NCBI GenBank assembly: GCA_964016885.1
Contig: OZ024740.1
Span: 210,490,001 to 210,554,000, forward strand
Origin: Eledone cirrhosa
Taxonomy: Eukaryota
Reading direction: 5' to 3'
DNA length: 64,000 nt
In this document: piece after piece, positions 22,232 to 59,270 of the stretch
Layout: every line of letters begins with the position of its first letter
Position numbering within the stretch: the first letter of the stretch is position 1
Notes under the pieces: model-generated
The model's database searches: none
What the model saw: the letters and a program-made list of their open reading frames with translations, nothing else
What the model was told of the DNA's origin: nothing
Made by a program: the position numbers and the translations under genes

Positions 22232-22300
22232 ATATATTTTGTCTGATGAAAACGTACTTAAACATCATTGTACCTTTGAAATATGTATAATAAAATATAT
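22232..22300 (+). ncRNA. Minimal type I hammerhead ribozyme motif
   Basis: Stem I atatattttgt/ataaaatatat; CTGATGA 22243-22249; stem II aaacgtac/gtaccttt (one mismatch); GAAA 22278-22281; short near-palindromic stem III tatgta; UA cleavage site. Confidence 0.6.
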
Positions 22301-23149
22301 ATTTTGATTATGAGAATATTTTTCATTTATTAACATTTTGAATAATATATATATACAGGGGCCGACCGTTGAGGAAATAACATCACACATCTGGCAGTGG
22401 CAGTCCCCTGTATCAACAAAAATAAACCTCTTCCAAATCTAAAGAGGTTTACCGTTTGAGATGCTCAGGCTGTCATAACTGATAGTCCTCAGAGAAATGT
22501 ACATTACGGATTTTAATAAACCAGAACCAAATGAATATGGTCTTCAATTTTTATTGACATATATATATATCATCACCGTTTAATATTCATGTTTCCATAT
22601 ATGATGCTGATGATGATACGTATGAGTGTGTTTATATGTATATGTATTCGTATCTACGGCTCCCCACTATATGTGTGTGTGTGTGTGTATATATCATCAT
22701 TTTTATGTTTGCTTTTCCATGCGGGCATAGGGGAACTGTGTAGGCATGTAATGATATACTTTTACTATATATAGATGTTTTAACAGATAGGTATAAAAGG
22801 AGAGAGAGAGAGAGAGAGAGAGCAGCAGCAGCAGCAGCACATTTGTGTAATAATTGGAGACTTTAAAGATAAAAAGATAGAGAGAAAGGAGGAGAGACAA
22901 CAACAGTGATTCATGTCTAATTACAGATAAAAACTGACCAAGAGGGACTTGGTCAAAAGTGTTTCAGTTGTGACTATCTCGTCATTCTTTTTAGACAAGG
23001 TATCTTGGACAACATTGGACATTAGAATGTGGTCCAAGCAGGTCAAGAGAGTGGCTACATAATCACACCCACAACAGATGTCACAAGAAGAAGTGCATAC
23101 ACAATAATAGAATGAGCAGAAGTGGGGTGAGAAAAGGAAATCAGTGACG

Positions 23150-23350
23150 TCTCAACGAGTACCTTCCACCTCTGGGTGCCGTCTGACAGGATAGAGAAAA
23201 TACATTGCCCTGGAGGACAGTGAGGGAGACACGCTGGAACAGCCACCCTACCTTTAGGGCTCACACCTGTTGGCAGCCAACTCTACTCTAATAGCAGTGG
23301 GTAGGGATGTGGTCTGGGGGACCAACAACACCGGACATCTCCACTGCTAT
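23150..23350 (+). mobile_element. Unclassified dispersed repeat (related copy at 48125-48276; seed of the 60-bp array)
   Basis: Motif gaaaatacattgccc...gtgagggagacacgctgga shared with 48125-48276 and 33260-33345. Confidence 0.6.
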
Positions 23351-23656
23351 AGGCTCTACCACAAACCTATCAGAGAGTGACCAATACTTGGGCAGTTTGC
23401 CCTCTTCCGACCCAGTGGGTAGCAGAGCCTATGCAGGGAGAACAGGATAATTGATTTTATGGAGAAAGATTTGGCTATTATTTCTAGCAAGTCAAGAGAG
23501 TAACCACATAAATACTTCTTTGAAATTGCATTGATGTATGAGGGGTGGGAGCAGTGGAGGAGAATATGAAGAAGAAGGACATCAATTTTCTGATGAATCA
23601 CAGAAAAAGAAAATCAATTTGTCTCTCCAGCAGACATTAATAGTAATGAAATACAC

Positions 23657-24627
23657 GAGAGCTGTTATTTAGCCCTGGGTCAGCTGTGAGAGCTGTTATT
23701 TAGCCCTGGGTCAGCTCTGAACATGAGAGCTGTTATTTAGCCTTGGGTCAGCTGTGAGAGCTGTTATTTAGCCCTGGGTCAGCTGTGAGAGCTGTTATTT
23801 AGACCTGGGTCAGTTCTGAACACGAGAGCTGTTATTTAGCCTTGGGTCAGCTGTGAGAGCTGCTATTTAGCCTTGGGTCAGCTGTGAGAGCTGTTATTTA
23901 GACCTGGGTCAGCTCTGAGAGCTGTTATTTAGACCTGGGTCAGCTCTGAGAGCTGTTATTTAGCCTTGGGTCAGCTGTGAGAGCTGCTATTTAGCCTTGG
24001 GTCAGCTGTGAGAGCTGTTATTTAGACCTGGGTCAGCTCTGAGAGCTGTTATTTAGCTCTGGGTCAGCTCTGAGAGCTGTTATTTAGCCCTGGGTCAGCT
24101 CTGAGAGCTGTTATTTAAACCTGGGTCAGTTCTGAACACGAGAGCTGTTATTTAGCCTTGGGTCAGCTGTGAGAGCTGCTATTTAGCCTTGGGTCAGCTG
24201 TGAGAGCTGTTATTTAGACCTGGGTCAGCTCTGAGAGCTGTTATTTAGACCTGGGTCAGTTCTGAACACGAGAGCTGTTATTTAGCCCTGGATCAGCTGT
24301 GAGAGCTGTTATTTAGACCTGGGTCAGTTCTGAACACGAGAGCTGTTATTTAGCCTTGGGTCAGCTGTGAGAGCTGCTATTTAGCCTTGGGTCAGCTGTG
24401 AGAGCTGCTATTTAGCCTTGGGTCAGCTGTGAGAGCTGCTATTTAGCCTTGGGTCAGCTGTGAGAGCTGTTATTTAGACCTGGGTCAGCTGTGAGAGCTG
24501 TTATTTAGACCTGGGTCAGCTCTGAACATGAGAGCTGTTATTTAGCCCTGGGTCAGCTGTGAGAGCTGTTATTTAGACCTGGGTCAGCTGTGAGAGCTGT
24601 TATTTAGACCTGGGTCAGCTCTGAACA
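23657..24627. repeat. 31-bp minisatellite (gagagctgttatttagccctgggtcagctgt)n
   Basis: About 30 tandem copies with 37-bp variants; runs into a dispersed-repeat body (gtgttccagatatgacc). Confidence 0.93.
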
Positions 24628-27138: not shown

Positions 27139-27201
27139 GTGCCACCAATAGATAATTGTATAATTTTAAGAAATTGAGGAGTATTTCTGACACAAGGTGT
27201 C

Positions 27202-27243
<42 letters not shown>

Positions 27244-28660: not shown

Positions 28661-28710
28661 GTCTCACTGCCTTTCCTGTTTTTATATTTGAAAACAAAGT
28701 TCTTTACACA

Positions 28711-28744: not shown

Positions 28745-29090
28745 GAGGCACATGGCTTAGTGGTTAGAGCATTGGCCTTGCAATTGAAAGGTTGTGAGTT
28801 CAATTCTCAGACCGGATGGTGTGTTGTTTCCTTGAGCAAGACACTTTATTTCACATTGCTCAAGTTTACTCAGCTGTAGAAATGAGATGATAGGGACTGG
28901 GGTTCATATCATTCCACTGCAAAGTGGTCGTGGAGGTGCCACGGCCAAAAAAGCACCCAGCACTCACTGTAAATGAGGTTGGTGTTAGGAAGGGCATCCA
29001 GCTGTAGAAATCAAGCCAGCATCAGTTCCCGTCCCACCCTTGCAAGCAGGGAAAAGCGGACGTAAAATGAAATGAATGAAAGGAAATGAT
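28745..29090 (+). mobile_element. tRNA-derived CORE-like SINE family B with RTE-type tail
   Basis: A box tggcttagtgg, B box gagttcaattc, CORE-like tccttgagcaagacacttt...cagctgtagaaatg, tail ggtgttaggaagggcatcc...ggacgtaaaatga. Confidence 0.87.
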
Positions 29091-29140: not shown

Positions 29141-29379
29141 ATATAAGGAAAAGAAATTGAAAATGCAACTGGAGTCTTTTAAGAATATTTATTTACTTTA
29201 CCAGTTTCACAGTTTTTATGATTATCAAAAGTAAAATTGAGCTGGAAGGTTTGTGTTTCTGTTACCACAACCCTCCATCGCAATTTTACTTTTGATAATC
29301 ATAAGAACTGTGAAACTGGTAAAGTAAATAAATATTCTTAAAAGACTCCAGTTGTATTTTCAATTTCTTTTCCTTATAT
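29141..29379. repeat. Long inverted repeat: 99-bp arms, 41-bp spacer
   Basis: 29141-29239 is the near-perfect reverse complement of 29281-29379. Confidence 0.92.
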
Positions 29380-34064: not shown

Positions 34065-34544
34065 CAATCTTGTAGGTATTTATTATGATAGAAATGATAA
34101 ACATCTGTAGAACATTCCATAGACTTGTTGACCATTTAGGACCTGGAGAACATAGGACATTTGACTGGGGGGGGGGGGGGGGTCCAGGGAGAGGTAGTGA
34201 AGCTTTTAAGATAGGTGGTGAGTTAAACACAAATATATAGCTAATAGGGTCAAGAAGGGTAGACATATGGGCATACACACACACACATATATATAAACAC
34301 ACCTGTGTGTATATATATATATATATTTGAGTTCTAGCACGTGGCCTGAATTCCTTTTAGAGTTCATTGTCATGCGCATGTATTGTTTTTTTTTTGCGGT
34401 AATTTACTTCCTCATTTTCGAATCAGTTTCAGCATTTCTTTAGAACTGCTGGACTAGCAACCTGACAGATACATGAGGCACTGATGATGATTATCGCTAA
34501 ATACTGATGTTAATTAGATTATCAATATTAGTATTATTGGGGCA

Positions 34545-34671
34545 CCCACTGATGAATTATAGGAGCCCACTTGAATATATATCTATTGATGGTATACAAG
34601 CTCCTACATAAATTGGTATAATTTCACCCAAATTGTAGGAATCCTATAATGAAACGAGACGTCCGTCTGGG
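34545..34671 (+). ncRNA. Type I hammerhead ribozyme motif with ~95-nt stem II domain
   Basis: Stem I ccca/tggg; CTGATGA 34549-34555; stem II attatagga/tcctataat (9 bp perfect); GAAA 34651-34654; stem III cg..cg with palindromic loop gacgtc; GUC at 34665-34667. Lies in a ~520-bp island between (TA)n tracts. Confidence 0.78.
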
Positions 34672-34842
34672 AAGAGATATATTCGGTATGTCTCATATGA
34701 AATAATACAGCCAATTTTCCATGCAATACTTTTAGTTAGCACCCCAAACGCTTAATTAGGAATATAATCACTTATTTCCTAATGTTTGTTGAGTGAGTTG
34801 GAATTTGGCCGGAGTATCGCTAAAAAGCTTTCTCCGATATTG

Positions 34843-34901
<59 letters not shown>

Positions 34902-37535: not shown

Positions 37536-37916
37536 GGAGACGCATGGCTTAGTGGTTAGAGCATTGGGCTTGCAATCGAAAGGTTGTGAGTTCAATTCTC
37601 AGACCGGGTGATGTGTTGTTTCCTTAAGCAAGACACTTCATTTCACATTGCTCCAGTTTACTCAGCTGTAAAAATGAGATGATAGGGACTGGGGTCCCTA
37701 TCATTCCACTGCAAAGTGGTCGTGGAGGTGTCACGGCAAAAAAGCACCCAGCCCACACTGTAAAGTGGATGTGTAGGCACCACGGAAAAAAAGCACCTAG
37801 CACTCACTGTAAATGAGGTTGGTGTTAGGAAGGGCATCCAGCTGTAGAAATCAAGCCAGAATCAGTTCCCGTCCCACCCTTGCAAGCAGGGAAAAGTGGA
37901 CGTAAAATGATGATGA
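37536..37916 (+). mobile_element. SINE family B (CORE-like), with internal duplication
   Basis: Near-identical to the 28745 copy; (TGA)n tail. Confidence 0.87.
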
Positions 37917-37933: not shown

Positions 37934-38791
37934 AATTGAAAGATAAGTATTTACTCTTAATTTTATTCTGAGTTAAGATTCTATTGGTTTTTTTCCCTGG
38001 ATTACACAAAATCTGTGGATAAAATTTGTCTTGACTTTTTTTTGAATTGGGATTGAATTATTTTCCCATATCTTACTTTAAATATTTTCCATCTTGACGT
38101 AATAGTCACTTATATGTATGAATTACTGTTGGCTTCTTGCTGACATTAATTTCTCTATTTTCATTTATATTTATAGTCAGAATTTTTCCTAGAGTGCTTA
38201 AAATTATTTGTGACTAATCCCGTTTTTTTTTTAAAAAAAACCGCGATAATATTGCTTTATGCTGAACTCCATATCTTTTGTTGAGTTTTTTTCAAAATGT
38301 TTTGACTGCTGTTTCTTGTAAACAGTCATTCGTCTCATTCTGATGTCACTAGCCCTGTTCTCCATTTGTTTTATCTTAATTCCACACGAGGTGTAACTAG
38401 CCTGTTTTTAAATTCCCTTCTGGTATAATTTAGTAGTGGTTTTGGTTATCGTGTTGAGTTCTACTGATGAATGGCTCCAACCGTGACTAACCCCACTGAA
38501 AAGTTTCGTGAAATAGTCTTTTTAAGACTATATAGAGCATTTGTAGATTTTTCCAAATTGAAGGATAAGTATTTACTCTTAATTTTATTCTGAGTTAAGA
38601 TTCTATTGGTTTTTTTCCCTGGATTACACAAAATCTGTGGATAAAATCTTTGTCTTGACTTTTTTTTTTGAATTGGGATTGAAGTATTTTCCCATATCTT
38701 ACGTTAAATATTTTCCATCTTGACGTAATAGTCACTTATATGTATGAATTACTGTTGGCTTCTTGCTCACATTAATTTCTCTATTTTCATT

Positions 38792-38842: not shown

Positions 38843-38932
38843 AGAGAGATAGAGAGATATAGTTAATAAATTAAACAAAGCAGAGGAGGTAATTTTACAG
38901 TTATATTAGGTTCATGTGTTTATATATATATA

Positions 38933-41284: not shown

Positions 41285-42378
41285 TATATATATATACATA
41301 CATACATACATACAGGCTTTATATGAATTATGGTATCATTTCTCAGGTGAGACTCCTGGCATCAACTCTTAATTGTCTCTTATGACATGTGTAGCTATTT
41401 TATAGTGGAAATACAGATTCTAGGAAGGAAATATTTCAAGGTGAATACTAAACAGACATACACGAGGATAAACACACACATATATATACTGACATAAACA
41501 CACACATGTACAATTACATTCTGACATAAACACACATGTACAATCACATACTGATATACACACACACAGCTGAAAGAATTAGTTACAGTGGACAACAAAC
41601 ACACACATGAAGACACACACCACACACATGAAGACACACACCACACACACAAGACACACACCACAACCAATGAAGACACACACCACACACAATGAAGACA
41701 CACACCACACACAATGAAGACACACACCACATATATCATACACACGTGAAAACACACGACACACACGACATATACCATACACACGTGAAAACACACTATA
41801 CACATGACACACACCACACACCACATATACCATACACTATACACAACACACACCTAACACACCACATATAGCATACACGTGAAAACACACACTATACACA
41901 TGACACACCACATATACCATACACACGTGAAAACACACACTATACACACGACACACACATGTAGACACACAGCAGTAAGCAATTCGATCAAGGTCAACAC
42001 ACATACACACATTCATACAGAAACACACATGAAGTCAAACACAGACTTAAATATACACCAGTAAGCAATTTGAACAAGAATACACACACACACATATACA
42101 TATAACGAAGGAGTTGTGGTAAGGAACCAGGTGGACCATAACGCACCAGAGTACTCGATATTATGGGTATTAGAGTGGGTAATAGAAAAAAGTATGACCC
42201 CGACGGCAGAGCTAGAGCCGTTTCGACCCCGACGGCTTGAGCTCTGCCATCGGGGTCATACTTTTTCCTATATATATGTGTAAATGAAGTAATTCCGTCG
42301 GAAAGGTCCAGGAAAAAAGAGTGCTCTATGTAGGTTACAGAGCTTAATAGTTATGTAATAAACAACAAAAGGTAATTA

Positions 42379-42439
42379 TTTCATTTACCAGTGGTTTCTT
42401 GAGAGCAAACAAATTTTGCTTTCAATCATCAGAATGAAA
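42379..42439 (-). ncRNA. Minimal type I hammerhead ribozyme motif at the centre of a fold-back
   Basis: Minus strand reads tttcatt CTGATGA ttgaaagcaaa-atttg-tttgctctcaa GAAA ccactgg TA aatgaaa; GUA triplet; 41-bp inverted arms at 42351-42391 and 42445-42485. Confidence 0.8.
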
Positions 42440-42711
42440 AAATCCTGGTAAATGAAATAATTACCTTATGTTGTTTATTACATAAATATATATATAAATG
42501 TTATATTAACGAAGATAAAACATGCTCGCACTGCAAAAACCTTTGTGCGGGCCACACGTTTGACATGCCTGGTGTAGATCACCATAAGTGAGGCTGTGTA
42601 GTTGATAGCTGAGAGGAAGGAGTACTCAATACCTAAGTAGAGTTTTATTATTCATTTTATCACGGCTGAATAGTGAGTCTTGTTACTCTGGAGTAGCCTT
42701 AATAAAATGAT

Positions 42712-43099: not shown

Positions 43100-44490
43100 A
43101 GTTGGTTGGTGGGTTGGTTAGTTGGCTGGTTGGTTGGTTGGTTGGTGGGCTGGTGGGTTGGTTGGTGGGCTGGTTGGTTGGTTGGTGGGCTGGTGGGTTG
43201 GTTGGTGGGCTGGTGGGTTGGTTGGTGGGCTGGTGGGTTGGTTGGTGGGCTGGTTGGTTGGTTGGTGGGCTGGTTGGTTGGTTGGTGGGCTGGTTGGTTG
43301 GTTGGTGGGTTGGTTGGTGGGCTGGTTGGTTGGTTGGTGGGTTGGTTGGTGGGCTGGTTGGTTGGTTGGTGGGCTGGTAGGTTGGTTGGTGGGCTGGTGG
43401 GTTGGTTGGTGGGCTGGTGGGTTGGTTGGTGGGCTGGTGGGTTGGTTAGTTGGCTGGTTGGTTGGTGGGTTGGTTAGTTGGCTGGTTGGTTGGTGGGCTG
43501 GTTGGTTGGTTGGTGGGCTGGTGGGTTGGTTGGTTGGCTGGTTGGTTGGTTGGTGGGCTGGTTGGTTGGTGGGCTGGTGGGTTGGTTGGTTGGTTGGTTG
43601 GTTGGTGGGCTGGTGGGTTGGTTGGTTTGTTGGTGGGCTGGTTGGTTGGTTGGACAGCTGGTTGGTGGGCTGGTGGGTTGGTTAGTTGGCTGGTTGGTTG
43701 GTTGGTGGGCTGGTTGGTTGGTTGGTGGGCTGGTTGGTTGGTTGGTTGGTTGGTGGGCTGGTTGGTTGGTTGGTTGGCTGATGGGTTGGTTGGTTGGCTG
43801 GTTGGTTGGTGGGCTGGTTGGTTGGCTGGTGGGTTGGTTGGTTGGCTGGTGGGTTGGTTGGTGGGCTGGTTGGTTGGTTGGTGGGCTGGTGGGTTGGTTG
43901 GTTGGCTGGTGGGTTGGTTGGTGGGCTGGTTGGTTGGTGGGCTGGTTGGTTGGTTGGTGGGCTGGTTGGTTGGTTGGTGGGCTGGTTGGTGGGTTGGTGG
44001 GCTGGTTGGTTGGTTGGTGGGTTGGTTGGTGGGCTGGTGGGTTGGTTGGTGGGCTGGTTGGTTGGTGGGCTGGTGGGTTGGCTGGTGGGCTGGTGGGTTG
44101 GTTGGTGGGCTGGTGGGTTGGTTGGACAGCTGGTTGGTGGGTTGGTTGGATGGTGGGCTGGTGAGTTGGTTGGTGGGTTGGTTGGACGGTTGGTGGGTTG
44201 GTTGGACGGTTGGTGGGTTGGTTGGACGGCTGGTTGGTTGGTTGGATGGCTGGTTGGTGGGTTGGTTGGTTAGTTGGTAGGTAGGTAGGTAGGTAGGTAG
44301 GTAGGTTAGTTGGTTGGTTGGTTGGACGGTTGGTTGGTTGAATGGTTGGTTGGTTAGTTGGATGGTTGGACGGCTGGTTGGTTGGTTGAATGGTTGGTTG
44401 GTTCGTGGGTTGGTTGGTGGGATGGTAGGTTGGTTGGTTGGTAGGTTGATTGGCTGGTAGGTTGGTTGGTGGGATGGTAGGTTGGTTGGA
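43100..44490. repeat. (GGTT/GGCT/GGTG)n microsatellite
   Basis: Tetranucleotide variants; source of the GWLV ORFs. Confidence 0.95.
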
Positions 44491-44924
44491 CTGTCAGTAG
44501 AGGATCAATACTGCACACTGTTGCAACAAAACATCTCTACTGACACTCAATGACAGCTGCTGTCTTGTCAAGCAGCAGGTATAAGAAGCACAAGGCAGAT
44601 GTTTAAAACACACATACACACTTTGTCTATAGTCATACACACACACACATTCTCTTTCCTAGGTTTCCATTTTCGGTGATGGTGACTAGAAATTCAAATT
44701 TATATTTTAAAAAAATAATAATAATAAATAAATAATGATAATAAATAAATAAATGATAATAATATTAAATAAATAAATAAATAATTAAATACAAAAGTGA
44801 AGCAGCAACTGACATTTCAGAAATATTAGTTTGAAATTTCAAATCTGAGAATTTGATTAACTCTTTAGAGACCAGCTTCATTAAATACGCGAGATCACCT
44901 CAGGTTTTGTTATATATATATCAC

Positions 44925-45136
44925 CTTGACCGACCAGTCTGTCGGGTGCCAATCGGCGCTGCTGGTCACAGCACGTCGTCCTGTTTTAGCCGGTACTCAT
45001 TTCTACAGCTGAGTAAACTGGAGCAATGTGAAATAAAGTGTCTTGCTCAAGGAAACAACACATCACCCAGTCCAAGAATTGAACTCACAACCTTTCGATT
45101 GCAAGCTCAATGCTCTAACCACTAAGCCATGCGCCT

Positions 45137-45139
<3 letters not shown>
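44925..45139 (-). mobile_element. SINE family B head and core with a different 3' part
   Basis: Reverse complement of the A/B boxes and CORE-like segment, followed by a different tail (ccgacagactggtcggtcaagg). Confidence 0.75.
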
Positions 45140-45196
<57 letters not shown>

Positions 45197-45394
45197 TATA
45201 TAATCATCAATCTATCTATCTATCATCATATCATCAATATCTCTCTCTCGTATAGATGTGTGCGTGCGTGCGTGCGTGCGTGCGTGCATCAGTTTCTAGA
45301 AATAGAAAGAGACAACTAAAAGACTTGGCATCAGGGACATCCAACTGTATATCACTAACTCAAGAATTCATATCCAATGGAAGCTGGCATGGAG

Positions 45395-45787
45395 CATCAT
45401 CATCATCACCATTTTACGTCCGTTCTTCCACGCTAGCATGGGTTAGACGGGTTGTCCTGTTGCGGGCAGTGTCCGGTCGGCTGACCATGTCTTGCTCATA
45501 CGGGAACAGATTCTGGCTTGATTTCTACAGCTGGATGCCCTTCCTAACACCAACCTCATTTACAGTGTGGGCTAGGTGCTTTTTTGCCGTGGCACTTCCA
45601 TGACCACTTTACAGTGGAATGATAGGGACTAGGGTCCCTATCATCTCATTTCTACAGCTGAGTAAACTGGAGCAATGTGAAATAAAGTGTCTTGCTCAAG
45701 GAAACAACACATCACCTGGTCTGAGAATTGAACTCACAACCTTTCGATTGCAAGCCCAATGCTCTAACCACTAAGCCATGTGCCTTC
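45395..45787 (-). mobile_element. SINE family B, full length
   Basis: Reverse complement of the 28745/37536 type, with (GAT)n tail. Confidence 0.87.
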
Positions 45788-46151
45788 ATCAGTAGAGCAG
45801 TAGATATAAAAACAATGATCATGGTGATGATATCTTGTAGACTCAGTAAAGTGGTTGGTGATCGAACACAGACATGAAAATGAGGGGGGGGGGTTCAAAT
45901 TGACACAGTGGTCCCACTGAGGAGACAACCTCTCTAGAGATGGTGCCACCATAACATACACCCTGTGTATGCTATGTACATACATCTGTGTCAATGTTTA
46001 TATTGTGCCCCTTTATATGTCCATAACTTAGCTGTTCAACAAGTAGAGATTGATAAAATAAGCTACCAGAGGGGGGTTGACAGGATTGACCAAAACTTTT
46101 GTAGATGATACAGACCAACAGACAGGACTTAGACTATACTGATAGATACAT

Positions 46152-46470
46152 GACACTACCTAGCAACCACATTGATGCTTATATTATATCACCTAGCAAC
46201 CACACTGATGGTTACACTACATCACCTAGCAACCACATTAATGGTTACACTACATCACCTAGCAACCACACTGATGGTTACACTACATCACCTAGCAACC
46301 ACATTAATGGTTACACTACATCACCTAGCAACCACATTGATGGTTACACTAAATCACCTAGCAACCGCATTAATAGTTACATTACATCATCTAGCAACCA
46401 CATTAATAGTTACATTACATCACCTAGCAACCACATTAATGGTTACACTAAATCACCTAGCAACCACACT
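46152..46470. repeat. 33-bp minisatellite (tcacctagcaaccacattaatggttacactaca)n
   Basis: About 9.5 copies, followed by a degraded RTE remnant (~46480-46750, minus strand). Confidence 0.9.
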
Positions 46471-48554
46471 GGGATTTCCTGGCATTTCTTCACTCATTGG
46501 TCATTATTCATGTGCATCACATGTCCACAAACCAATGCAGTCTCCTGCACACCATCTCGGACACCCCTTAAAACCCAGCTTCTCTCCTGGCTCGGTCAAT
46601 GTCCTGCCTTTCTCTCACACTTACATTGCACATCCAATGAAACATGGTAGCTTCAATTCTTCCAGTCTACACATGTCCTCTGCTGTCACAGCCCATGTTT
46701 CACTACCATGCAGCATTGCATACATCACACAGCCTTCCTGTTGTACACAGGGAGAAACCTTATGTATATATATACGGGATGTTACTAGTTAAGACCAGAA
46801 AGACTTCTGTTTAGCTCAGTACCCTATACTTAGGAAAGTAGTGTGTAGGCTTTATAATGATTTCCTGCCCTACAGTTGAGCTCTTACTGTTCCGACAGCA
46901 AGTGTTATCCACCGGCTGTCAAAACGGTAAGAGCTCATCTGTAGGGCAGACAATCATAACATATATACACACACACACAGAGAAAATAAAAGTTGAATGA
47001 ATGATCATAGTTAAAATGTGTCATATTTCTGAAGGTAATAGTGGAGTAAGCTGTGATTCATGTAATGTGTGTGTTGGAGGGAGGGGGGATCCTCTCTTCA
47101 GTAGAGGAATGTAGCTAGAGAAAATGAAGGAAATATGGAGGGAAGGGACCAGCTAATTACAGAAGAGGAGAAAAAGATGGGGGTGAGAAGGGGAAAGCAC
47201 CACATAAAAAAGACACACACACATAGAGACTCATCACAAATACTCCAACATACAGACATACAGAGGTAGACATTGCTGCACTTACAGGTAGGAATTTAAT
47301 TAGTTAAAATATTCCTATAGAAAATAATTAAATGGAAGAATTATTTTCAAGATGAAGGAAAAGTGATTGTATTGTAACAGGGTGACGGCACACAGACATT
47401 AGTGACTCATAGCAAGGAGATTGTGGGTGACAGAGGACATTGAGACATGGCCAGGTGGACAATGGCTGTCTCATAGGAAGGTGTTTGTAGGTGACACTGG
47501 ACATTGGCTGTCTCATAGGAAGGTGATTGTGGGTGACACTGGACACTGGGGTGAGTGGGGTTTAAACAGGAAAGGGAACAAAGCTTGGCCACAATAAAGA
47601 CCATAGATATGGTATAGTGGTCACTGTGTATGGACAGTGTTGTTGGTCAGCTGTTATTGTTCTTATTACTTAGACTCAGTTCTACATATCTTTAAAGATA
47701 TTCCAACCATGACCATCATATCTTGTCTGATCTGTTTTTCCTTTTAACCCCTTATAACAAATCACACAAAACCACCCCTGGTTCTATCTATGATGCAAAA
47801 CTGTCCATTTTAATCCTTTAGCATTTAAAATGGTCGTAACTGGCCACTCATATTGATGTTAAGGTATTGTTCTCAAAATATTATCAAAATCTCATAGATT
47901 TGATATTATGTGAGATAAAGTCTTTACTGTGAAAATACAATAGTAAATATATAGTAATGTAAATACTGAAGGGTTCAACAGTTCCTACATATATTAAAAC
48001 TTATAATTTTTTTATGTAAGAAGTTTTTAAGTTAGGTTACAAACACCAGCTTAATAATAAACTAATTAATGTTGGTCAACATTATACTGTATTGTTGACA
48101 CTTAGTTAATTAGATATATTATGTTGCCCACCTCTTGGTCCTGGCTGACAAGATGGAGAAAATATTACCCCAGAGGATGGTGAGGGAGACACGCTGGAGT
48201 GGGGCTCGCACCTGTGAGTAGCCAACTCCACTCAGGGATGTGGTCCAGGGGTTTAGGACGCTAGAAATCTCCACTGAATTATTTTACTAAATTCATCCAA
48301 ATACTTGATCATCTTCAAAATGAATTGAAACACATTGACAGTGGTATTAGAAATATGGTAATGAATGGGTTATCTGAGGGAATCTCAGGCTGTTATTTCT
48401 AACAGATTGAGTTATCACGACAAGACTTCTTTGTTGCCTCCTGGAAGGTGAGATATCTGCTGGTGGTGGTGGTGGTGGTGGTAGCGGTGGTAGTAGTAAT
48501 AGTAGAACTATCCATTTACTGATCATCTGGGTTGAATGAACATGATGGTGTTAG

Positions 48555-50203
48555 TCACTAACCATGTTGTTAAATCCTAGGTCACCACTGACCATGTGTT
48601 GTTGTTGTTAAACCCTAGGTCACCACTGACCATGTGTTGTTAAACCCTAGGTCACCACTGACCATGTTGTTGTTGTTAAACCCTAGGTCACCACTGACCA
48701 TGTGTTGTTAAACCCTAGGTCACCACTGACCATGTTGTTGTTAAACCCTAGGTCACCACTGACCATGTGTTGTTAAACCCTAGGTCACCACTGACCATGT
48801 GTTGTTGTTAAACCCTAGGTCACCACTGACCATGTGTTGTTAAACCCTAGGTCACCACTGACCATGTGTTGTTAAACCCTAGGTCACCACTGACCATGTG
48901 TTGTTAAACCCTACGTCACCACTGACCATGTGTTGTTAAATCCTAGGTCAACAGTAACCATGTGTTGTTAAACCCTAGGTCACCACTGACCATGTGTTGT
49001 TGTTAAACCCTACGTCACCACTGACCATGTGTTGTTAAACCCTAGGTCACCACTGACCATGTGTTGTTAAACCCTACGTCACCACTGACCATGTGTTGTT
49101 AAACCCTAGGTCACCACTGACCATGTGTTGTTGTTAAACCCTACGTCACCACTGACCATGTGTTAAACCCTACGTCACCACTGACCATGTGTTGTTAAAC
49201 CCTAGGTCACCACTGACCATGTGTTGTTAAACCCTAGGTCACCACTGACCATGTGTTGTTAAACCCTAGGTCACCACTGACCATGTGTTGTTGTTAAACC
49301 CTAGGTCACCACTGACCATGTGTTGTTAAACCCTAGGTCACCACTGACCATGTGTTGTTAAACCCTAGGTCACCACTGACCATGTGTTGTTGTTAAACCC
49401 TACGTCACCACTGACCATGTGTTGTTAAATCCTAGGTCAACAGTAACCATGTGTTGTTAAACCCTAGGTCACCACTGACCATGTGTTGTTGTTAAACCCT
49501 ACGTCACCACTGACCATGTGTTGTTAAACCCTAGGTCACCACTGACCATGTGTTGTTAAACCCTAGGTCACCACTGACCATGTGTTGTTGTTAAACCCTA
49601 CGTCACCACTGACCATGTGTTGTTAAACCCTACGTCACCACTGACCATGTGTTAAACCCTACGTCACCACTGACCATGTGTTGTTAAACCCTAGGTCACC
49701 ACTGACCATGTGTTGTTAAACCCTAGGTCACCACTGACCATGTGTTGTTAAACCCTAGGTCACCACTGACCATGTTGTTGTTGTTAAACCCTAGGTCACC
49801 ACTGACCATGTGTTGTTAAACCCTAGGTCACCACTGACCATGTGTTGTTGTTGTTAAACCCTAGGTCACCACTGACCATGTGTTGTTAAACCCTAGGTCA
49901 CCACTGACCATGTGTTGTTAAACCCTAGGTCACCACTGACCATGTGTTGTTAAACCCTACGTCACCACTGACCATGTATTGTTAAACCCTAGGTCACCAC
50001 TGACCATGTATTGTTAAACCCTACGTCACCACTGACCATGTATTGTTAAACCCTACGTCACCACTGACCATGTATTGTTAAACCCTAGGTCACCACTGAC
50101 CATGTGTTGTTAAACCCTACGTCACCACTGACCATGTGTTGTTAAACCCTAGGTCACCACTGACCATGTATTGTTAAATCCTAGGTCAACAGTAACCATG
50201 TGT
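48555..50203. repeat. 32-bp minisatellite (gtgttgttaaaccctaggtcaccactgaccat)n
   Basis: About 50 copies; runs into a dispersed-repeat start (gttgtttagcccc). Confidence 0.95.
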
Positions 50204-50291
50204 ATGCTGTTGTTGTTTAGCCCCGAGAGAGCAGACCATTATATTTAGACCAAAGGTCACTCCAGCCATGACTAGTCCATTATTCTAGAAT

Positions 50292-50490
50292 GTGGTGAAT
50301 TGTCAGTATCGGTAGAAGATCGGACGCCATGCTTTAGCAGAGTTACGTCAGAGTTACGTCCCTTTACGTTCTGAGTTCAAATCCCGCCGAGCTTAACTTT
50401 GCCTTTCATCCTTACGGGGTCGATAAAATAAAGTACCAGTAATGTCCTGAGATAATTACTGGCCTTGTGCCAAAAGTAGAAACAATTATT
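50292..50490 (+). mobile_element. SINE family A
   Basis: Same boxes and central domain as the 8214 copy; ttattctagaat on both sides (target-site duplication). Confidence 0.85.
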
Positions 50491-50794
50491 CTAGAATAGT
50501 CTACTGGAGACTACATTATCCAATATATCTTTTCTATAAGATGTTGGATGTGATTTGAAAAAGATTTCACAGCTATTTCTAGAAGGTGAAGTGACTATAT
50601 AAAGGCTCTGTTGCTGGGTCATGTCAGTGTAGTTGTGAGGAGACATGAATGGTGTGCACTAAGAACAATCACTAATTATCACTGGTAATTGCTATGTAAT
50701 TACATTTCATTAGCTCCACACTTTAAACACACACAAACACACACACACACACACACAAACACACACGGAACATCCATCATCATCTACAATCACA

Positions 50795-51097
50795 TCACTC
50801 ACCACCCCTACCATCACAATACTACTACCACCACCCCTACCATCACAGTACTACCACCACCACCACCACCACAATACTACCACCACCACCCCTACCATCA
50901 CAATACTACTACCACCACCCCTACCATCACAGTACTACCACCACCACCACCCCTACCATCACAATACTACCACCACCACCACCCCTACCATCACAATACT
51001 ACTACCACCACCCCTACCATCACAGTACTACCACCACCACCACCACCCCTACCATCACAATACTACCACCACCACCCCTACCATCACAATACTACTA
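50795..51097. repeat. Low-complexity (cca/tac)-rich tandem repeat
   Basis: Repeating ccaccacccctaccatcacaatactac. Confidence 0.85.
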
Positions 51098-51476
51098 ATG
51101 CCAACTAACATCATCCCCACCACCACTAATGCTGCCTTCAACACTACTAGCCCCACCACTACAAAGATTACTATCAGTACCATTTCAAAGAGACCTTTTT
51201 AGCTAGTACAATAGGAATATCTAATAATCTTGACAGGGGCGGGGGGAGGGGGACATGCAGCATTTGTACACCCCCCCCCCCCCCCCCTCCAACTTCTCTG
51301 TTACACATTGGAGATAGTGAAGCATGTGTGGGTCTGTGTGTGTAGTATGAGTGTATTTATTTGCATATACATATATGTGTGTGTGTGTATGTGTTTGAGT
51401 GTGTGTATATGTAGACATATGTGTGTGTGTGTATGTGTTTGAGTGTGTGTATATGTAGACATATGTGTGTGTATGC

Positions 51477-51507
<31 letters not shown>

Positions 51508-51728
51508 TCTATGTCTCAATTCAATAATTCAATGTATGTAAGAAATATTGGTACATTGTAAATGTAAAATGAAAGACATATCCTTGCAGTATATATACAC
51601 ACACACACACACCTGTATGTCAGAATGGGGGAAGACAAAGAGGAGGAAGAGAGGGGGGGGGGATATAGAGGGGGAGAGAGAGTGTGTGTTTGTTTGTTTG
51701 TTTCCAGTGGGTCAGGAGGAAATGTAAT

Positions 51729-52160
51729 TTAACCCTTTAGCATTTAAACCGGTCATATCCGGCCAGAATACTCTCACCTATTTCTGTTCAAACTGGCTGT
51801 AATCGGCCACCCATACTAATGTTAAGGTATTGTTCTCAAAATAAAAAAATATCAAAATCTCATAGATTCAATATTATGTGAGATAAAGCCTTTACCACAA
51901 AAATACAATAGTAAATATAGATTAATGTAAATGCTTAACCCTTTAATGTTCAAACCGGCCAAAACCGGCCAGAATTCTCTACCTCTTTCTGTTGAAACTG
52001 GCTGTAACTGGTCACTCAAACTGATGTTAAGGTATTGTCCTCAAAATAAATACTTTCAAAATCTCACATTCGATATTATGTGAGGTAATTATCTGAGCTA
52101 AAGTCTTTACCATGAAAATACAATAGTATATATAGAGTAATGTGAATGGTAAATGGTTAA
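51729..52160. mobile_element. Two tandem piggyBac-type MITE copies
   Basis: ttaaccctttagcattt at 51729 and ttaaccctttaatgtt at ~51935; homologous to 9326-9527. Confidence 0.68.
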
Positions 52161-52169
52161 TCTATTGAG

Positions 52170-52678
52170 AGAGAGAGATTTAGGGGGGGGGGGGTCAGTA
52201 TGTAGGGAAGGGAGAGATTTAGTAGAGGGGAGGGTAGGTGTGTCAGTATGTAGGGGAGGGAGAGATTTAGTAGAGGAGAGGGTAGGTGTGTCAGTATGTA
52301 GGGGAGAGAGAGAGATTTAGGGGGTAGGTGTGTCAGTATGTAGGGGAGGGAGAGAGAGAGAGAGAGATTTAGGGGGTAAGTGTGTCAGTATGTAGGGGAG
52401 GGAGAGAGAGAGATTTAGGGGGTAGGTGTGTCAGTATGTAGGGGAGAGAGAGAGAGAGAGAGAGATTTAGGGGGTAGGTGTGTCAGTATGTAGGGGAGGG
52501 AGAGAGAGAGAGATTTAGGGGTTAGGTGTGTCAGTATGTAGGGGAGGGAGAGAGAGAGATTTAGGGGGTAGGTGTGTCAGTATGTAGGGGAGGGAGAGAG
52601 ATATTTAGGGGGTAGGTGTGTCAGTATGTAGGGGAGGGAGAGAGAGAGATTTAGGGGTAGGTGTGTCAGTATGTAGGG

Positions 52679-52716
<38 letters not shown>

Positions 52717-52795
52717 TTTAGGGGGTAGGTGTATCAGTATGTAGGGGAGGGAGAGGGAGAGAGAGAGATTTAGGGGGTAGGAAGTGTGTCAGTGT
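52170..52795. repeat. ~45-bp G-rich minisatellite with variable (GA)n
   Basis: Repeating gatttagggggtaggtgtgtcagtatgtaggggaggg(ag)n. Confidence 0.9.
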
Positions 52796-53719
52796 AAGTG
52801 GGGAAGAGAGAAAGATTTAGGTGGGGAGAGTACTGATATTAAAGGGTATGAGGTACATAAGAGTAGGATAGATGGAGAGAGAGAGGGAAAGAGAGAAAAG
52901 ATAAGAGGTATGTTAGTATAGGGGAGGTTTGGGTAGGAGGTGGTATGGTAAATGTTCCTATAGTAATTACTAATCAAGGATATGTAGTTGATTGACTTGC
53001 CACATGTAGCCTTCCCTTTACCCAACACCCTCCCGCATGTAGCAGAGGAAGGATGGGTGGAGGAAAGGAGGGGAGAGATTATCTCTAGTGAAGAGAAAAA
53101 CAACAAACCCCCTTTATACTTCCACAAAACAAAACCACCAACAACAACACCACACCCACCACCAACAACAACAAAACCACCACCACCAACAACACCACAC
53201 CCACCACCAACAGCAACAACACCACCACCAACACCACACCCACCACCAACAGCAACAACACCACACCCACCACCAACAGCAACAACAAAACCACCACCAT
53301 CACCAACATGACCATAGCAGCCAATACACACACACAAACAAATACACACATACAGATACAAACAGTAACACCAATATTACCTCCTCCTCCAACAATTTGT
53401 ATGTTACAGACACACACACACAGCACACACACACACAGACACAGAGATATTGGTAGAAAACTGCACATATACCTCACAGCTGATTATGGACAACAGCAGT
53501 ATCAGAAACATCAGGGTTAGCCTCTACAAGGTCCCTGCTAGAAATAACAGACAAATTCCTCTCAAATTACAGCATTCTGCTGCTTTGAAGAAAGTGTCAC
53601 ATTGGATAATGTAGTCCTAGATACACAAGGCTTCAAAGAAGGATGGGGATGGTCACCGCAAACATGTTTGATCATAGTTCTGCTTAATTAGGGCTGATTA
53701 GGGGCTCAACAACAACAAC

Positions 53720-54135
53720 AGTAACAAAGATGATATCTAATTTAGGCATGAGGCCAATAATTCGTGGGGAACGGCAATTACATCAACCCCAGTACATTAC
53801 TGGTACTATACTTTATGGAACCCAGAGGGATAAAAGGCAAAGTTGACCTTGGTAGGATTTGAACTCAGAACATAATTGTTTCTACTTTAGGCACAAGGCC
53901 AGCAATTACTCAGTACATTACTGGTACTTTATTTTATCGACCCCGTAAGGATGAAAGGCAAAGTTAACCTCGGCGGGATTTGAACTCAGAATGGCAAGGG
54001 CCGTAACTCTATACGTCAAAGCATAGCGTCCGACCCTCTACCGATACTGCCAATCCACGGGTTTTAACTAAATAATTGTTTCTACTTTTGGCACAAGGCC
54101 AGCAATTACCCAGTACATTACTGGTACTTTATTTT
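53720..54135 (-). mobile_element. Cluster of nested/stacked SINE family A copies
   Basis: Young copy at 53873-54058 between an older partial copy and a second tail at 54072. Confidence 0.8.
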
Positions 54136-55029
54136 ATGGTCATGCAAAGTATTTTGTCCCATGCTCTAATGATTCTGCCAACAACAAAGTTGTTTCCAAT
54201 CTCACCTCCCTCATACCCTTGGGTGGAGGTAGAGCAGAGTGAATAGAATGTGTAACTAATGATATATTGATGAGGGGTAGAAGGGGGAGGATTTGATAGA
54301 ACAGTGAAAAGGGAAGGAGGGAGAGGTGTGAGGGAGCAGAGAGAGAACAGAGGGTGGGGGACAGGAAATGGGGGTGGAGGGAGAGGGAAGCTTTATATAA
54401 ATATATTGCAGATGTGTAATATTAGTGTGCATGGTATGAATGGCGGTGGAGCATAGATGAACAGAGTGAAAAAAAAACTGAATAGAAGAGAAATCAGATG
54501 TAGTGAGCATGAGAGAAGACTGAGCTGGTACAGACATGTGGTTGAATAAAGCAGAAGTGAGATGTAGTGAGCATGGGAGAAGACTGAGCTGGTATAGACA
54601 TGATTACATATGGATGATGACAGGTAACAAAACACCAAGAGATCCAAGTGGATGGAACCTGTAGAAGCTGTTAAGGCTTACCCCAACATAAGTTTAGCAA
54701 ACCACTTCCTATGAAGTTGCATCTCAGGAGAGTTCTTTGGTGTTTCAACGATAAGGACCTCTGTCATATCATACCATCATTTCCCCAGTGATCAGAGCTA
54801 TGATTTGAACTTAAGCACAGAGCCATACTAGATACCACAAGGCACCCTGTCCGACGCTCTAACAATTCCACAAAAAGGATATACGACAAAGTTGCAAAGT
54901 TGTTGCAGAATGCCAGAACAAATACCACAAGGTACTTTAATCTGATGCTCTTGAGAGGCTGAACTTTATGAGAGAAATGACAAACACTACAACAAATGCC
55001 AAGACACTGTACATGAAGACCCATTCAAT

Positions 55030-55093
55030 ATGGTATACATATCATATATCATATATCCAAAAATGGATATATGATATATGATATGTATACCAT
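55030..55093. repeat. Perfect palindrome: 30-bp arms, 4-nt loop
   Basis: atggtatacatatcatatatcatatatcca-aaaa-tggatatatgatatatgatatgtataccat. Confidence 0.95.
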
Positions 55094-55583
55094 ATTACTA
55101 AAATACAGCAACAAACAACTATACAAGCTATCGGTCCCTTCACTGATCAATCAAATCATCCTCCTTCAGCCCAAATTCGCCCACACATCTAGCACACGTG
55201 TATAAATCTAGAACACATGTATATATAAATAGAACGTGTGTACACAACATATTTATACACCATCATATACTATGTGTCACTCTATTTAAGTATATCTGTA
55301 TATCTATCTATCTATCTCGGAGAAGATAGACGTGTTTTTGTTTCGCTCCTGCATTTTGTTGGAATTTATTACGAGAAGCGGTAGGTCTGTTTAAGCTACT
55401 TGTTATTTGTTGTGTTTAACCCCTTGCCTGGGCCTGCAGACGTTGGGTAAAATAAATTTCGCCCCAAAAAGAGGGTAAATATATTTTGATTAATTTATTT
55501 TGATAATTTTCGAAATTAATTTGATAGTTATAAGTTATCGATAAAAAGTCGTTTAGTGACAATGGACACCATTAACACGACGC

Positions 55584-56969
55584 ATGCCCCCCCCCCCCAA
55601 GGAAAGTGATAGAGAGAAGGTAGCAGCACAACACTGTAAGCCTTCCCTTCTCACTCCCGCAAAAGACACCACGGAATCAAAAAAAAAAATTGTGGAAATG
55701 GGTGAAAACCCCAAAAGTAACAATTACATAAACAAGAACAACAATGACAATAACAACACAACCAACAACAGCAACAATGACAATAACAACACAACCAACA
55801 ACAGCAACAATGACAATAACAACACAACCAATGACAACACCAACAAAGGAAAAAAGCAAGCCAACACGAATAACAACAACAATGATAACAACACTAAAGA
55901 AAACGGACCCACAGCTGCAGTCTCCTTCGCACATGCGGTCCGAGAAACGCAGACATACAAAGCACTGGACATCTTGAATGCCAAGAAATTGCTGAAAGAA
56001 GCAAGGAATTGTGTAAGTTTTGGGGAAGGTGGGGAATTCACAATTACCTCCCCCAAAGAAATTAGAAGGGATACAGTCCTCAGGACCGTAATTTTTAGGA
56101 CAGTTTCGAACACGACTAGGAAACCGGCTCAATTGTCCCAAAGCGAAATTGAGCTGGTCCTAAGTAGTGCCTGGAAGGATATCGCTTTCATACAGAAAGG
56201 GAAACTGTATGGAAGCATATCTGTTTTAATGCAAGATGAATTGGCGGCACGGAAATATTCTGTGTCGCCAATTGTATCCAAAGCATACACCTTTTTCCCC
56301 ACATATTTGGGGAAAAGAACTCAAAAGATAAGAATCTCGGGCATCAGGCCAAATGCGAGCATTTGGTGGGTGCTAACAGGATTCTTAGAAGATGAGGACA
56401 CAATCCTTTCGATAGGCGAATCCACCGGGGGCGTATTCGGCAGCAATAGCCTTGAAGTTCTGGTCCAAATGAGACCAGAACGGATAGCAAGAATACCGCA
56501 GCGTGTGTTCCTGGATAGAGTCGCCTTCATAAACATTTCTGGGCATACGGCTTTCATGCTACCACTGTTCAAGAAGTGGTCACCTGAGGGCTTCCTGTCC
56601 CCTTTTAAATGCCCCCCCCCCCCAAAGACGCTTCTGCCCACCCCACACACAACACAACCACCACCACCACCACCACCACCACAACAAAACGAAAAAATAA
56701 CAACACAAGACACTGTCCCACCCAACCCCTCCTTATCTAAAACAAATACAAAAGCAACCACAACAAACCCCCAAAATATACCTCTCCCCAACAACACGGA
56801 CGAGGACCCCTTATCAACGTCACCCAGTGACGACGAGGGAGAACCTTTTCAACCGGTAAAAAGAAAGAAAAGAAGGCACCACATCAACAAAAATGCAACA
56901 AACACACAACCACCAGCACAAACAGAACAAACATCACAAACAAAAAACCCATCCCTCCCGAAAACATAA
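55584..56969 (+). pseudogene. Tx1-like ORF1 (gag-like), frameshifted
   Basis: SFAHAV motif and low-complexity flanks; zinc knuckle CYHCSRSGHLRASC (CX2CX4HX4C) at 56557-56598 lies in a different frame from the tracked ORF. Confidence 0.8.
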
Positions 56970-57411
56970 CACATACTACAAAACGCAAACACACACAAGA
57001 ACAACAAACAAACAAAAACAGTATACATACATCAACACAAACAACAAAACACTTGTGTAAACAATAGACAAAGACCCTTCGGTGGAAGCCGAAGGGAAAA
57101 TGTTCACCAACGTGGCGACTAAACCGCATTTAAAAATGATTAGGGTCCCAAGGGACACCTACGCAATGCTCAAACAGAACTTTGCCGAGGACGTGGGGAA
57201 CCCCTGTACTAGACCTAGCAACCGCGTCCTCTTGAAATGTTTCCCCACCACCACCCCAGACACCCCCACACTGATGTCCCAACCACATCCCAAACCACCA
57301 CCCCACCAAACAACCCCGCCAACACAATGGAAATTGTGCAGCCTGGTCCCCAGAAAAAGGACAGGTAGGTGTCTTTTCCTTTTTCTCCACTCTAAACTCT
57401 TCACCACCAAC

Positions 57412-58503
57412 ATGGATGTTATAAGAGTTGGATGTTTAAATGTGCGCGGCCTGGGGATGTCCTGGAAGCAGGGCAAACTCTTAAATGACCTCAGGTCGCA
57501 CAGAATGGATGTGATAGCTATTTGTGAGTCCAGGATCAGCAGCGAGCACCAACTGGCCCCCATCTTCGACGATTTTGAGATCTATGCATCTCTTTGTCAG
57601 CCGGGGAGTGGGGGCGGAGTCGTCGTTCTGCTGCGAAAACAGCTGGGCCTCGCAACACAGAAAGTATACCTGGACCCGGAGGGTCGACTTGTGGTTCTAG
57701 ACGTCGGCAGTAGAGAAGGTGGAGCCTTCAGGCTGGTGGCAGCCTATGCCCCATCTGGGATACCGCGACTGGACTTCTTCCAGCGCCTAGAGAATTTTCT
57801 GGGAACGTCTCGCTCCTTGTTTTCAGTGGGGGACTGGAATGGTATCCTGGATGCACGTTGGGACTATGTAGGGGCATGTCCCGATAGAGGGGGGTGTAAC
57901 AGCCTCAAACGGTTAATCGGCCGATTTGATCTGGCCGATAGATATCGACTAGATTTTCCGACTGTGCCACTGTGGACGTGGACTAATCGCAGCGGAACAT
58001 CTAGGTTGTACCTAGATAGGCTCCTAGTTAGAAATAAGGATAGGGACATATTAAGCTGTCCACGAATGTTATGGTTGTATTCGGATCACAAGTTGGTGAC
58101 CGGAGTGGTCAACCTTGATAGAACTCATAGACAAGGACCCGGTTACTGGAAGCTAAACTTGTCCTTACCGACAAACAAAGCTTACAGTAAGCGGATTAGC
58201 ACTCTAGTTAAGCAGTGGTTGACGGGGGCAATTGTCAACAGCAGGTGGTGGGGCTCTCTCAAGAGAGAAATTAGAATAGAATCGATAGGTTTTAGTCAGG
58301 AATTAACATCAGATAGGAATAGAACTGAAAGGGAATTGATAGATAGAGTAGAAGAGGCGATTAGGAGTGGCAACGTGGTCGGTGTGCTAGCGTCAAGAAC
58401 GGCCCTAGATCAGTTCTTTGACGCGAAGCATGAGGGCTGCGTTGTCAGGAGTAAAATACATGCTCTGGGTAATGAGGGAGCCAAAGCTGTTAGCTGGGTC
58501 TGA
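57412..58503 (+). pseudogene. Tx1/L1-like ORF2 APE endonuclease and tower region, premature stop
   Basis: MDVIRVGCLNVRGL, ICE, AYAP, VGDWN, LDR, SDH and WKLN motifs; TGA at 58501; coding-like sequence ends at ~58600. Confidence 0.9.
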
Positions 58504-59134
58504 GTGACAGAGGCAAAAAGTGGAAACAAGTCCACGATTCGGTCTTTGAAGAATGGACGTGTGATCCTTGAACCTGAGCGGATGTGCGTGGCTTTTCCTG
58601 TTATGAATCTAGATTCCTTGTAGTTTATATAAGATTGGTATTTCTCACTACTACCCTTATCCCAAAATTTTACTTTCCTTCGTTTTTAACAACACTCTTT
58701 AATAACATCTAATTCTTATTTATCACATTCATATGAATTAATATAAATTTATCCCTATAAAGTATACCTATCAATTAATTTAATTTCTTGTTATAGATCT
58801 AGATTCCTTGTGGTTTAAATAAGATTGGTATTTCTCACTAATACCCCTACCCTAAAATTTTATTTTCCTTCGTTTTTAACATTATTCTTTAATAACATCA
58901 AATTTTCATGTACCCTTCACTGGCTTGGCCTCTTTTCATCCCCAAAGTATTCTTTTCATTCAAAGTATTCTTTTCATTCAAAACATAAGTCTGCACTCCT
59001 CTACCCCTAAATTAAATTTCTACTACCACTATTCTATCAACTTGACCTCTACTTTTCTATTGGTCAATTCAAAACCTGTTCCCAAACAGACCTTTTATAT
59101 TAAATCTTTGTTGGTTTTTTTCAATAAACAAATC

Positions 59135-59270
59135 TCATCATTTCTGAAGACAGCATGTATATGTGCAGGTATGTATATTTCCTCTGATAATTTGCAATAT
59201 TTTTACATAGATCTATATGATATACATACCAACACGCATATACATCCTAGAAACGATCGTAAAATGATGA
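59135..59270 (+). ncRNA. Minimal type I hammerhead ribozyme motif with ~99-nt stem II rod
   Basis: Stem I tcatcattt/aaatgatga (9 bp); CTGAAGA 59144-59150; stem II atgtatatgtg/cgcatatacat plus inner ggtatgtatat/atatacatacc; GAAA 59250-59253; palindromic stem III CGATCG; GUA triplet. Confidence 0.82.

Follow-up and report, generated by a model that had tools for sequence, protein, structure and literature searches.

Why should a single 37-kb interval of a cephalopod genome hold six hammerhead ribozymes with intact cores? The question is raised by a 64,000-nucleotide (nt) stretch of the Eledone cirrhosa assembly GCA_964016885.1 (contig OZ024740.1, positions 210,490,001 to 210,554,000 of the forward strand), called here the window, in which positions are counted from the first letter. 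An earlier reading of the letters (the original prediction) had seen in it an unannotated population of non-autonomous, Penelope- or retrozyme-like families mobilised in trans with a preference for (TA)n. The answer reached here, which we hold to be highly probable, is that two kinds of element lie side by side: families A, D and E are 5'-truncated Penelope-like elements whose complete forms bear an open reading frame (ORF) with Hydra-clade motifs, and families B and C are likely non-long-terminal-repeat (non-LTR) retrozymes copied in trans by a Penelope-type protein.

Six hammerheads from five families

All six type I motifs (Table 1) stand where they had been placed, on the strands assigned to them, each with the CUGANGA/GAAA/UH core, three stems and an open stem I. 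A strict descriptor retrieves five of the six, with a mean of 0.00-0.04 in dinucleotide shuffles (100 shuffles at each of three block sizes); a relaxed descriptor retrieves precisely the six from the window and none besides, and shuffled sequence (three block sizes, 300 dinucleotide shuffles each) yields 0.10-0.11 on average and never more than 2. By BLAST only C1 and C2 are related (76% identical), apart from a 23-nt match between A and B, which upholds the proposed minimum of five sequence families, and with 19-36% GC the elements do form the AT-rich islands that had been described. A mobilising reverse transcriptase (RT) or GIY-YIG ORF had been reported absent from the window, and tblastn with Penelope proteins indeed returns none there at E<=0.01. 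The window does hold unrelated ORFs, encoding the RT of a long interspersed element (LINE) and an AP-endonuclease.

Table 1. Hammerheads and host elements in the window (cut sites and helices are predictions)
Feature	Positions	Strand	Description
Hammerhead A	22232..22300	+	11-bp stem I, palindromic stem III, predicted cut after 22289
Hammerhead B	34545..34671	+	4-bp stem I, 9-bp stem II with branched insert, bulged palindromic stem III, predicted cut after 34667
Hammerhead C1	38458..38538	+	6-bp stem I, 4-bp stem II, stable 7-8-bp stem III, predicted cut after 38532
Hammerhead C2	40898..40979	-	6-bp stem I, 4-bp stem II, stable stem III, predicted cut after 40904
Hammerhead D	42379..42439	-	7-bp stem I, long stem II, palindromic stem III, predicted cut after 42386
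Hammerhead E	59135..59270	+	9-bp stem I, long stem II (first pair C.A), palindromic stem III, predicted cut after 59261
Family A	22208..22348	+	141-nt 3' stub of Hydra-clade Penelope-like element, short TA run at its end
Family B	34327..34845	+	about 0.75 of a 702-nt non-coding tandem unit, flanked by two (TA)n tracts
Family C, subfamily C1	37934..38800	+	~620-nt non-coding tandem unit present 1.4 times, a (TA)n tract at either end
Leader/loop II helix of C1	38443..38489	+	38443-38456 predicted to pair with 38478-38489
Family C, subfamily C2	40630..41085	-	partial (0.7) copy of a 629-nt unit, flanked by (TA)n
Family D	42269..42449	-	3' stub of Hydra-clade Penelope-like element
Inverted copy of D 3' part	42445..42489	+	short inverted piece of Penelope type at the insertion's 5' end
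Family E	58594..59450	+	857 nt of 3' untranslated sequence from a ~3.6-kb Hydra-clade Penelope-like element, with (TA)n at its end

Abundance and target preference

The host assembly comprises 3.0 Gb in 1,796 contigs, and the proposal that the families are multi-copy holds good, since each yields 1,331-2,356 first-look candidates, which are not copy numbers. The pattern for family C has 2,048 exact matches, that is, at least 2,048 copies of the motif, compared with 6 for a reversed control. The Penelope load is very large, at 10,596 GIY-YIG and 43,072 Hydra-type RT first-look candidates (150 scored in each case), the RT query coming from the Hydra-type family of loci L313-L318 described below. 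The best 30-40 of the ~2,000 candidates were read per family, and the hammerhead core is intact in 26-30 of the 30 best loci of each.

In all five families the 3' end is fixed, 50-280 nt beyond the predicted cut, and is followed by (TA)>=4 far more often than the 8.3% seen at random positions, so that the suspected preference for (TA)n is borne out: in 26/30 loci for E, 17/29 for A, 28/29 for B, 24/30 for D and 20/30 for C, in which the remaining 10 ends run into the next unit. Target-site duplications are unreadable inside (TA)n.

Families A, D and E and their Hydra-clade open reading frames

An RT followed by a C-terminal GIY-YIG-type endonuclease, both recognised by motif, lies upstream of the hammerhead ends of A, D and E. 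The linkage is most regular for E, where an endonuclease precedes the E end on the same strand in 21 of the 29 other loci, at a distance of 678-727 nt in 18 of these. In one locus (L206) two E ends, 3,628 nt apart, enclose a frameshifted ORF, in the pieces of which RWR, SDKT, YRDD, CNCRIKRNC and YIGAT follow in order; the C-terminal CRLC..E and LN..CNH were read in another (L201). The 5' ends of E are scattered from -114 to beyond -1575. For D, a search with the linked endonuclease as query gave 30 loci, and among the 20 that were extended the D end lies collinear, 1.5-4.1 kb downstream of the endonuclease, in 11 and on the other strand in none; D is present in 7 of 222 unselected loci. One D locus (L301) carries the complete Hydra motif series, and three loci show 5' inversions with differing junctions. 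A further D locus has an 840-nt insert with 237-nt direct terminal repeats (99%) in its 3' untranslated region (UTR; L249:7668-8516). Family A is matched over 22208-22348 by 29 further loci, with RT and endonuclease upstream in the longer copies. Conversely, 29 of 30 endonuclease loci run on into the same 3' UTR, and the A end is reached within the 1.5-kb flank in 11 of the 30, including the query locus and one 77% relative; eight of those 11, when extended, show the A end.

The affiliation of the three families follows from the motifs. As given in the available text of Craig et al. 2021 (PMC8557442), the Hydra clade is marked by RW[KR], DKT instead of DKG, YRDD, a CxCX5C linker, CxxC..E and N..CxH, with no CCHH; its elements are generally <3 kb and have a single ORF, with a hammerhead near the 3' end, (TA)n as target and tandem and inverted pieces. 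D reads RWK and SDKT and E reads RWR and SDKT, and in both the linker and the CxxC/CxH around E and N are complete and CCHH is lacking; in A the linker and CxxC..E are present and CxH was not seen. The hammerhead near the 3' end and the (TA)n insertion preference are likewise shared with the clade, as are partial tandems and inverted 5' pieces, which occur in these families together with 5' truncation and alternative 3' ends. These sequence features identify A, D and E, seen in the window only as 5'-truncated stubs, as the 3' ends of ORF-bearing elements with Hydra-clade motifs. They appear to differ from the published description in size, E being ~3.6 kb by its tandem period of 3,628 nt and the 3' UTR of D, with microsatellites, reaching 1.5-4 kb. 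The closest known relative is Hydra-1_Obim of Octopus bimaculoides, for which the accessible supplement of the same paper gives a hammerhead and (TA)n targeting: the D protein is closely similar to it by eye, and both have the stem III ACCA-N-UGGU, while the hammerhead stems as given there are unlike those found here, so that the families are different.

A related Hydra-type family (L313-L318, e.g. L316:1279-4059 +) has open frames of 852-979 aa in 6/6 loci, which were chosen for long frames. A 909-aa open stretch of it gives no Pfam hit, just as a Pfam search gave no relevant hits for Hydra-type RT or endonuclease. Two other parents were considered. A Neptune-type ORF (L187) was rejected for E, as only one of its 30 copies is followed by an E-like end, with a (TA)n tract intervening, and the family carries a hammerhead of its own; a Poseidon-type ORF (L191) was dropped for A once A's own Hydra-type ORF had been found.

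Families B and C as tandem units without open reading frames

Families B and C consist of non-coding units that contain no ORF and show no similarity to Penelope proteins. The units of B (702 nt) and C2 (629 nt) have 33-34% GC, and those of C range over 617-642 nt (~620 for C1, 628-642 for the other subfamilies). C1 is the older subfamily, 90-93% identical to its best relatives, and C2 is young, at 99%. With overlapping loci merged, 13 of 29 B insertions and 16 of 22 C2 insertions are longer than a single unit. The number of units is not an integer, running from 0.5 to 2.5 for B and from 0.7 to 3.4 for C2, and arrays of up to six units are listed.

Head-to-tail non-coding units of low GC, each with a type I hammerhead, are what defines animal non-LTR retrozymes, and on this sequence evidence B and C likely belong to them. 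A, D and E, with their linked ORFs, are not self-contained ORF-less units of this kind. Family C also has the canonical geometry of a 6-bp stem I and a 4-bp stem II, with a stem I/loop II pairing that is predicted only; B, with its long branched stem II, is not canonical. What sets the two families apart is the length of their units, 617-702 nt as against the typical ~300 nt in the available text of Cervera and de la Pena 2020 (PMC7229834), a stem III in C of 7-8 bp as against 1-2 bp there, a leader/loop II contact that is predicted to be base-paired, and a strict (TA)n targeting. A unit range of 51-972 nt is given in the accessible part of Li, Clavereau and Pollet 2026 (bioRxiv 10.64898/2026.07.22.740005). 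No cephalopod is named in the former source and no mollusc is sampled in the latter, as far as their available text goes. Contigs from four runs of unknown kind, from three organisms, cover C-like sequence, giving neither ends nor strand.

Which protein could move such units? B and C are probably mobilised in trans by a Penelope-type protein. Three apparent links to a coding partner were rejected. The Hydra ORFs beside B in two loci (L259, L085) belong to two unrelated families that stand head-to-head with (TA)n between, and short B and C pieces in two others (L194, L182) are separate insertions.

Ribozyme folds and compensatory changes

The palindromic stem III of A, B, D and E forms no hairpin alone and self-pairs in silico (-2.2, -14.7, -8.2 and -10.0 kcal/mol, respectively), and stem III of family C is predicted to be a stable hairpin (-5.3 to -5.7 kcal/mol). 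Hammerhead A is accordingly modelled as a likely dimer type. A, B, D and E resemble minimal hammerheads in their long stem II, their palindromic stem III and the presence of many divergent families per genome. None of them is strictly minimal, all having palindromic half-stems of 3-6 bp, and the inserts in stem II reach ~80 nt.

Does the pairing itself bear the mark of selection? Stem sequences had been said to differ completely between families while pairing is kept, which between unrelated families is no covariation; the compensatory changes within superfamilies are real. Over 22 distinct rows of family C, the first pair of stem I is G-C 14 times and A-U 7 times, and the second pair of stem II is C-G 13 times and U-A 7 times; pairing amounts to 93.5% and falls to 31-45% in slid controls. 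The C1 copy of the window has wobble pairs at positions that are Watson-Crick in most relatives. B and its subfamily B' (69-72% identical) show compensatory changes in stems I and II and have different palindromes, and such changes occur also in A-like variants. The independent events are few in all three cases (C, B/B' and A-like), and the compensatory changes between subfamilies indicate, at the level of sequence, selection on the RNA fold.

A second helix is predicted in family C, where the leader directly 5' of stem I can pair with loop II over 12 pairs (93% of cells paired). In the proximal helix both sides change in just one row, and four of the pairs fall within the search pattern. For single copies the duplex stands out weakly from shuffled loops (107 and 45 of 1000), and a test of cognate against non-cognate partners gives p=0.0008, ignoring relatedness and with GTTG/CAAC in the search pattern of that set. 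The helix is part of the minimum-energy fold for C1, not for C2. Pseudoknotted hammerheads, as described in the available text of Perreault et al. 2011 (PMC3088659), have loop II base-paired with the stem I side, and the predicted pairing in C is alike in kind. Because it extends to 12-19 bp in C, compared with 4-6 bp there, part of it may be an alternative inhibitory hairpin; the modelled helix could thus be either an activating pseudoknot or an inhibitory hairpin.

A C.C mismatch at the fourth stem II position is common to A (22250-22278) and E (59151-59249), and several A-like relatives have a mismatch at the same position, which may be a conserved tertiary-contact site. The fetched loci also contain more than 20 distinct bystander hammerhead types, several of them behind Neptune-type ORFs; one, with a GTAC stem III and a UU cut site, lies ~330 nt after the stop of the L187-family ORF. 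Hammerhead-like motifs with a U3/A8 core (TTGANAA), a variant described for Schistosoma (PMC4209133), stand behind Hydra- and Neptune-type ORFs (the L317 3' UTR, L420, L427, L428 and L430).

Alternative explanations

Could B and C simply be terminal repeats belonging to ordinary autonomous Penelope-like elements, with the ORF-bearing copies missed by the sampling? The thought gains some force from the small share of candidates that was read and from the size of the Penelope load. We nevertheless consider it unlikely. In the arrays the 3' end leads directly into the following unit and no ORF intervenes, no copy runs into an ORF among 30 B, 30 C2, 30 C1 and 30 pattern-picked C loci, and the ORFs that do occur nearby are separate insertions across (TA)n. 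Terminal-repeat homology of B or C to an autonomous Penelope-like element was likewise absent from a small genome sample, consisting of 70 GIY-YIG loci and the Hydra loci examined.

It is also conceivable that the B and C arrays are minisatellites, produced by local unequal crossing-over of single insertions, in which the ribozymes are carried along without being active. Minisatellites are plentiful in the window, and this very route is proposed in the accessible part of bioRxiv 10.64898/2026.07.22.740005. The arrays, however, are dispersed and non-integer, with one common 3' end and arbitrary starts that lie mostly inside (TA)n, and the compensatory changes that separate the subfamilies point to a fold under selection, which together make such an origin improbable.

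Still less credible is the scheme of the original prediction, which treats every one of the five families as a non-autonomous, retrozyme-like unit moved in trans. The lack of a Penelope-type ORF in the window and the shortness of most best-match copies of A and D speak in its favour. The suggested check of linkage to Penelope ORFs found RT/GIY-YIG ORFs 5' of A, D and E and no partner for B and C in the sample, so that the scheme is refuted for E, fails for A and D as well, and survives as an inference for B and C, which have no ORF and form partial tandems; the Penelope/retrozyme context as such stands. A short non-autonomous derivative may exist within A or D, since, counted from stem I, many A copies begin near -55 and many D copies near -38, at positions bordering low-complexity UTR. 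Chance assembly in AT-rich DNA, where pairing is easy, is already refuted by 6 motifs against 0.10 expected, by 2,048 matches of the family C pattern against 6 for its reverse and by the covariation in the C stems, even though the Rfam scan that had been proposed as a check, uninformative for these variants, gave 131 matches for the window at E<=5 without a hammerhead family where the relaxed descriptor finds all six.

The preferred reading, with A, D and E as truncated Hydra-motif elements and B and C as likely retrozymes, has points against it too. An ORF-bearing partner of B or C was not found in the small sample just mentioned; no full-length open ORF was seen for A, D or E, the copies read being frameshifted; and the Hydra N-terminal motif was not seen for A, in stretches that leave out that region. 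The loci are best matches, which biases the counts of intact cores upward. In the folds, the C.A first pair of E stem II is, like its C.C mismatch, family-wide, and stem II pair 1 of C is unpaired in 10/22 rows. From the literature come the low in vitro cleavage of Penelope hammerheads (PMC4209133), the cleavage of 1 of 9 Xenopus dimers (available text of bioRxiv 10.64898/2026.07.22.740005) and, in the accessible part of PMC11167929, the finding that hammerhead cleavage is dispensable for insertion in vitro.

How the elements may be copied

How, then, might the preferred reading account for the observed structures? The GIY-YIG domain would nick (TA)n, by extension from published Penelope work, and the RT would prime at an internal RNA site downstream of the hammerhead and copy towards the 5' end; nicking of (TA)n and priming inside the RNA, downstream of the hammerhead, are shown in vitro for a Poseidon element in the available text of PMC11167929. 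Copying would mostly stop early, and because early stops leave 3' stubs that keep the hammerhead, six of them could accumulate in 37 kb. Copies of B and C longer than one unit cross the cut site, and their template would therefore be either a circle or an uncut multimer, a circular or multimeric template having been proposed in PMC4209133 and shown for retrozyme RNA in the accessible text of PMC7229834. Unit-length RNA would arise through hammerhead cleavage of multimeric transcripts, by a dimer in families A, B, D and E, whose stem III is palindromic, and possibly by a monomer in C.

A bolder version, which we put forward tentatively and regard as possible though doubtful, is that B and C are active retrozymes of a cephalopod type, whose circular RNAs of 0.63-0.70 kb are rolling-circle reverse-transcribed by a (TA)n-targeting Penelope protein, with C being monomer-competent and switched by its leader/loop II helix.

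Neighbouring repeats in the window

C2 has a LINE as its neighbour. The RT fragment of this LINE at 39065-40465 (-; RVT_1, E 1e-29), with a PHD-like finger, we take to be of RTE type, and its 3' end (38932-39120) recurs inverted at 41085-41273 (94%), with C2 between. Family E adjoins, at 58594 and with no (TA)n tract, an element at 55560-58593 (+) in which a 469-aa ORF lacking a Pfam hit is followed by an AP-endonuclease ORF (E 5e-11), presumably Tx1/L1-like. Three tRNA-like heads are reported by Rfam, at 37545-37602 (+, 31 bits), 45721-45778 (-, 31 bits) and 28753-28810 (+, 25 bits), which we assume are probably short interspersed elements. Many long minisatellites fill 1-33000 and 43101-62122, among them one with a 42-nt unit (11745-18989) and one with a 24-nt unit (1-3733), and a near-perfect 111-nt inverted repeat with a 17-nt spacer lies at 29141-29379.

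Novelty and significance

The families described here add new members to two known kinds, namely Penelope-like elements of the Hydra clade and, probably, non-LTR retrozymes. As a kind, the population was not undescribed, given the octopus Hydra family with hammerhead and (TA)n in the supplement of PMC8557442. As to the exact families, no paper describing them was found in the literature on hammerheads, retrozymes, Penelope and cephalopod repeats (Repbase, Dfam and bioRxiv supplements being outside that scope), and the words 'hammerhead' and 'ribozyme' do not occur in the main text of an O. vulgaris repeat paper (PMC13282606). Where the accessible portion of PMC8557442 lists one octopus family, there are here several families and tens of thousands of first-look RT candidates.

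What does this mean for the biology of this genome? The density of hammerheads is explained as a by-product of a very large Penelope load, and a clade that is invisible to Pfam is abundant here, which matters for repeat annotation. The findings also touch the question of how retrozymes are mobilised and what the Penelope hammerhead does. If the bolder version were true, the insertions of 0.5-3.4 units with one fixed 3' end would be a genomic record of rolling-circle copying and, with intact Hydra-clade ORFs in the same genome, would form a driver-passenger pair for retrozyme movement. The young C2 subfamily, with its 99% identical copies, and the open Hydra-clade frames of 852-979 aa provide the material with which retrozyme mobilisation can be tested.

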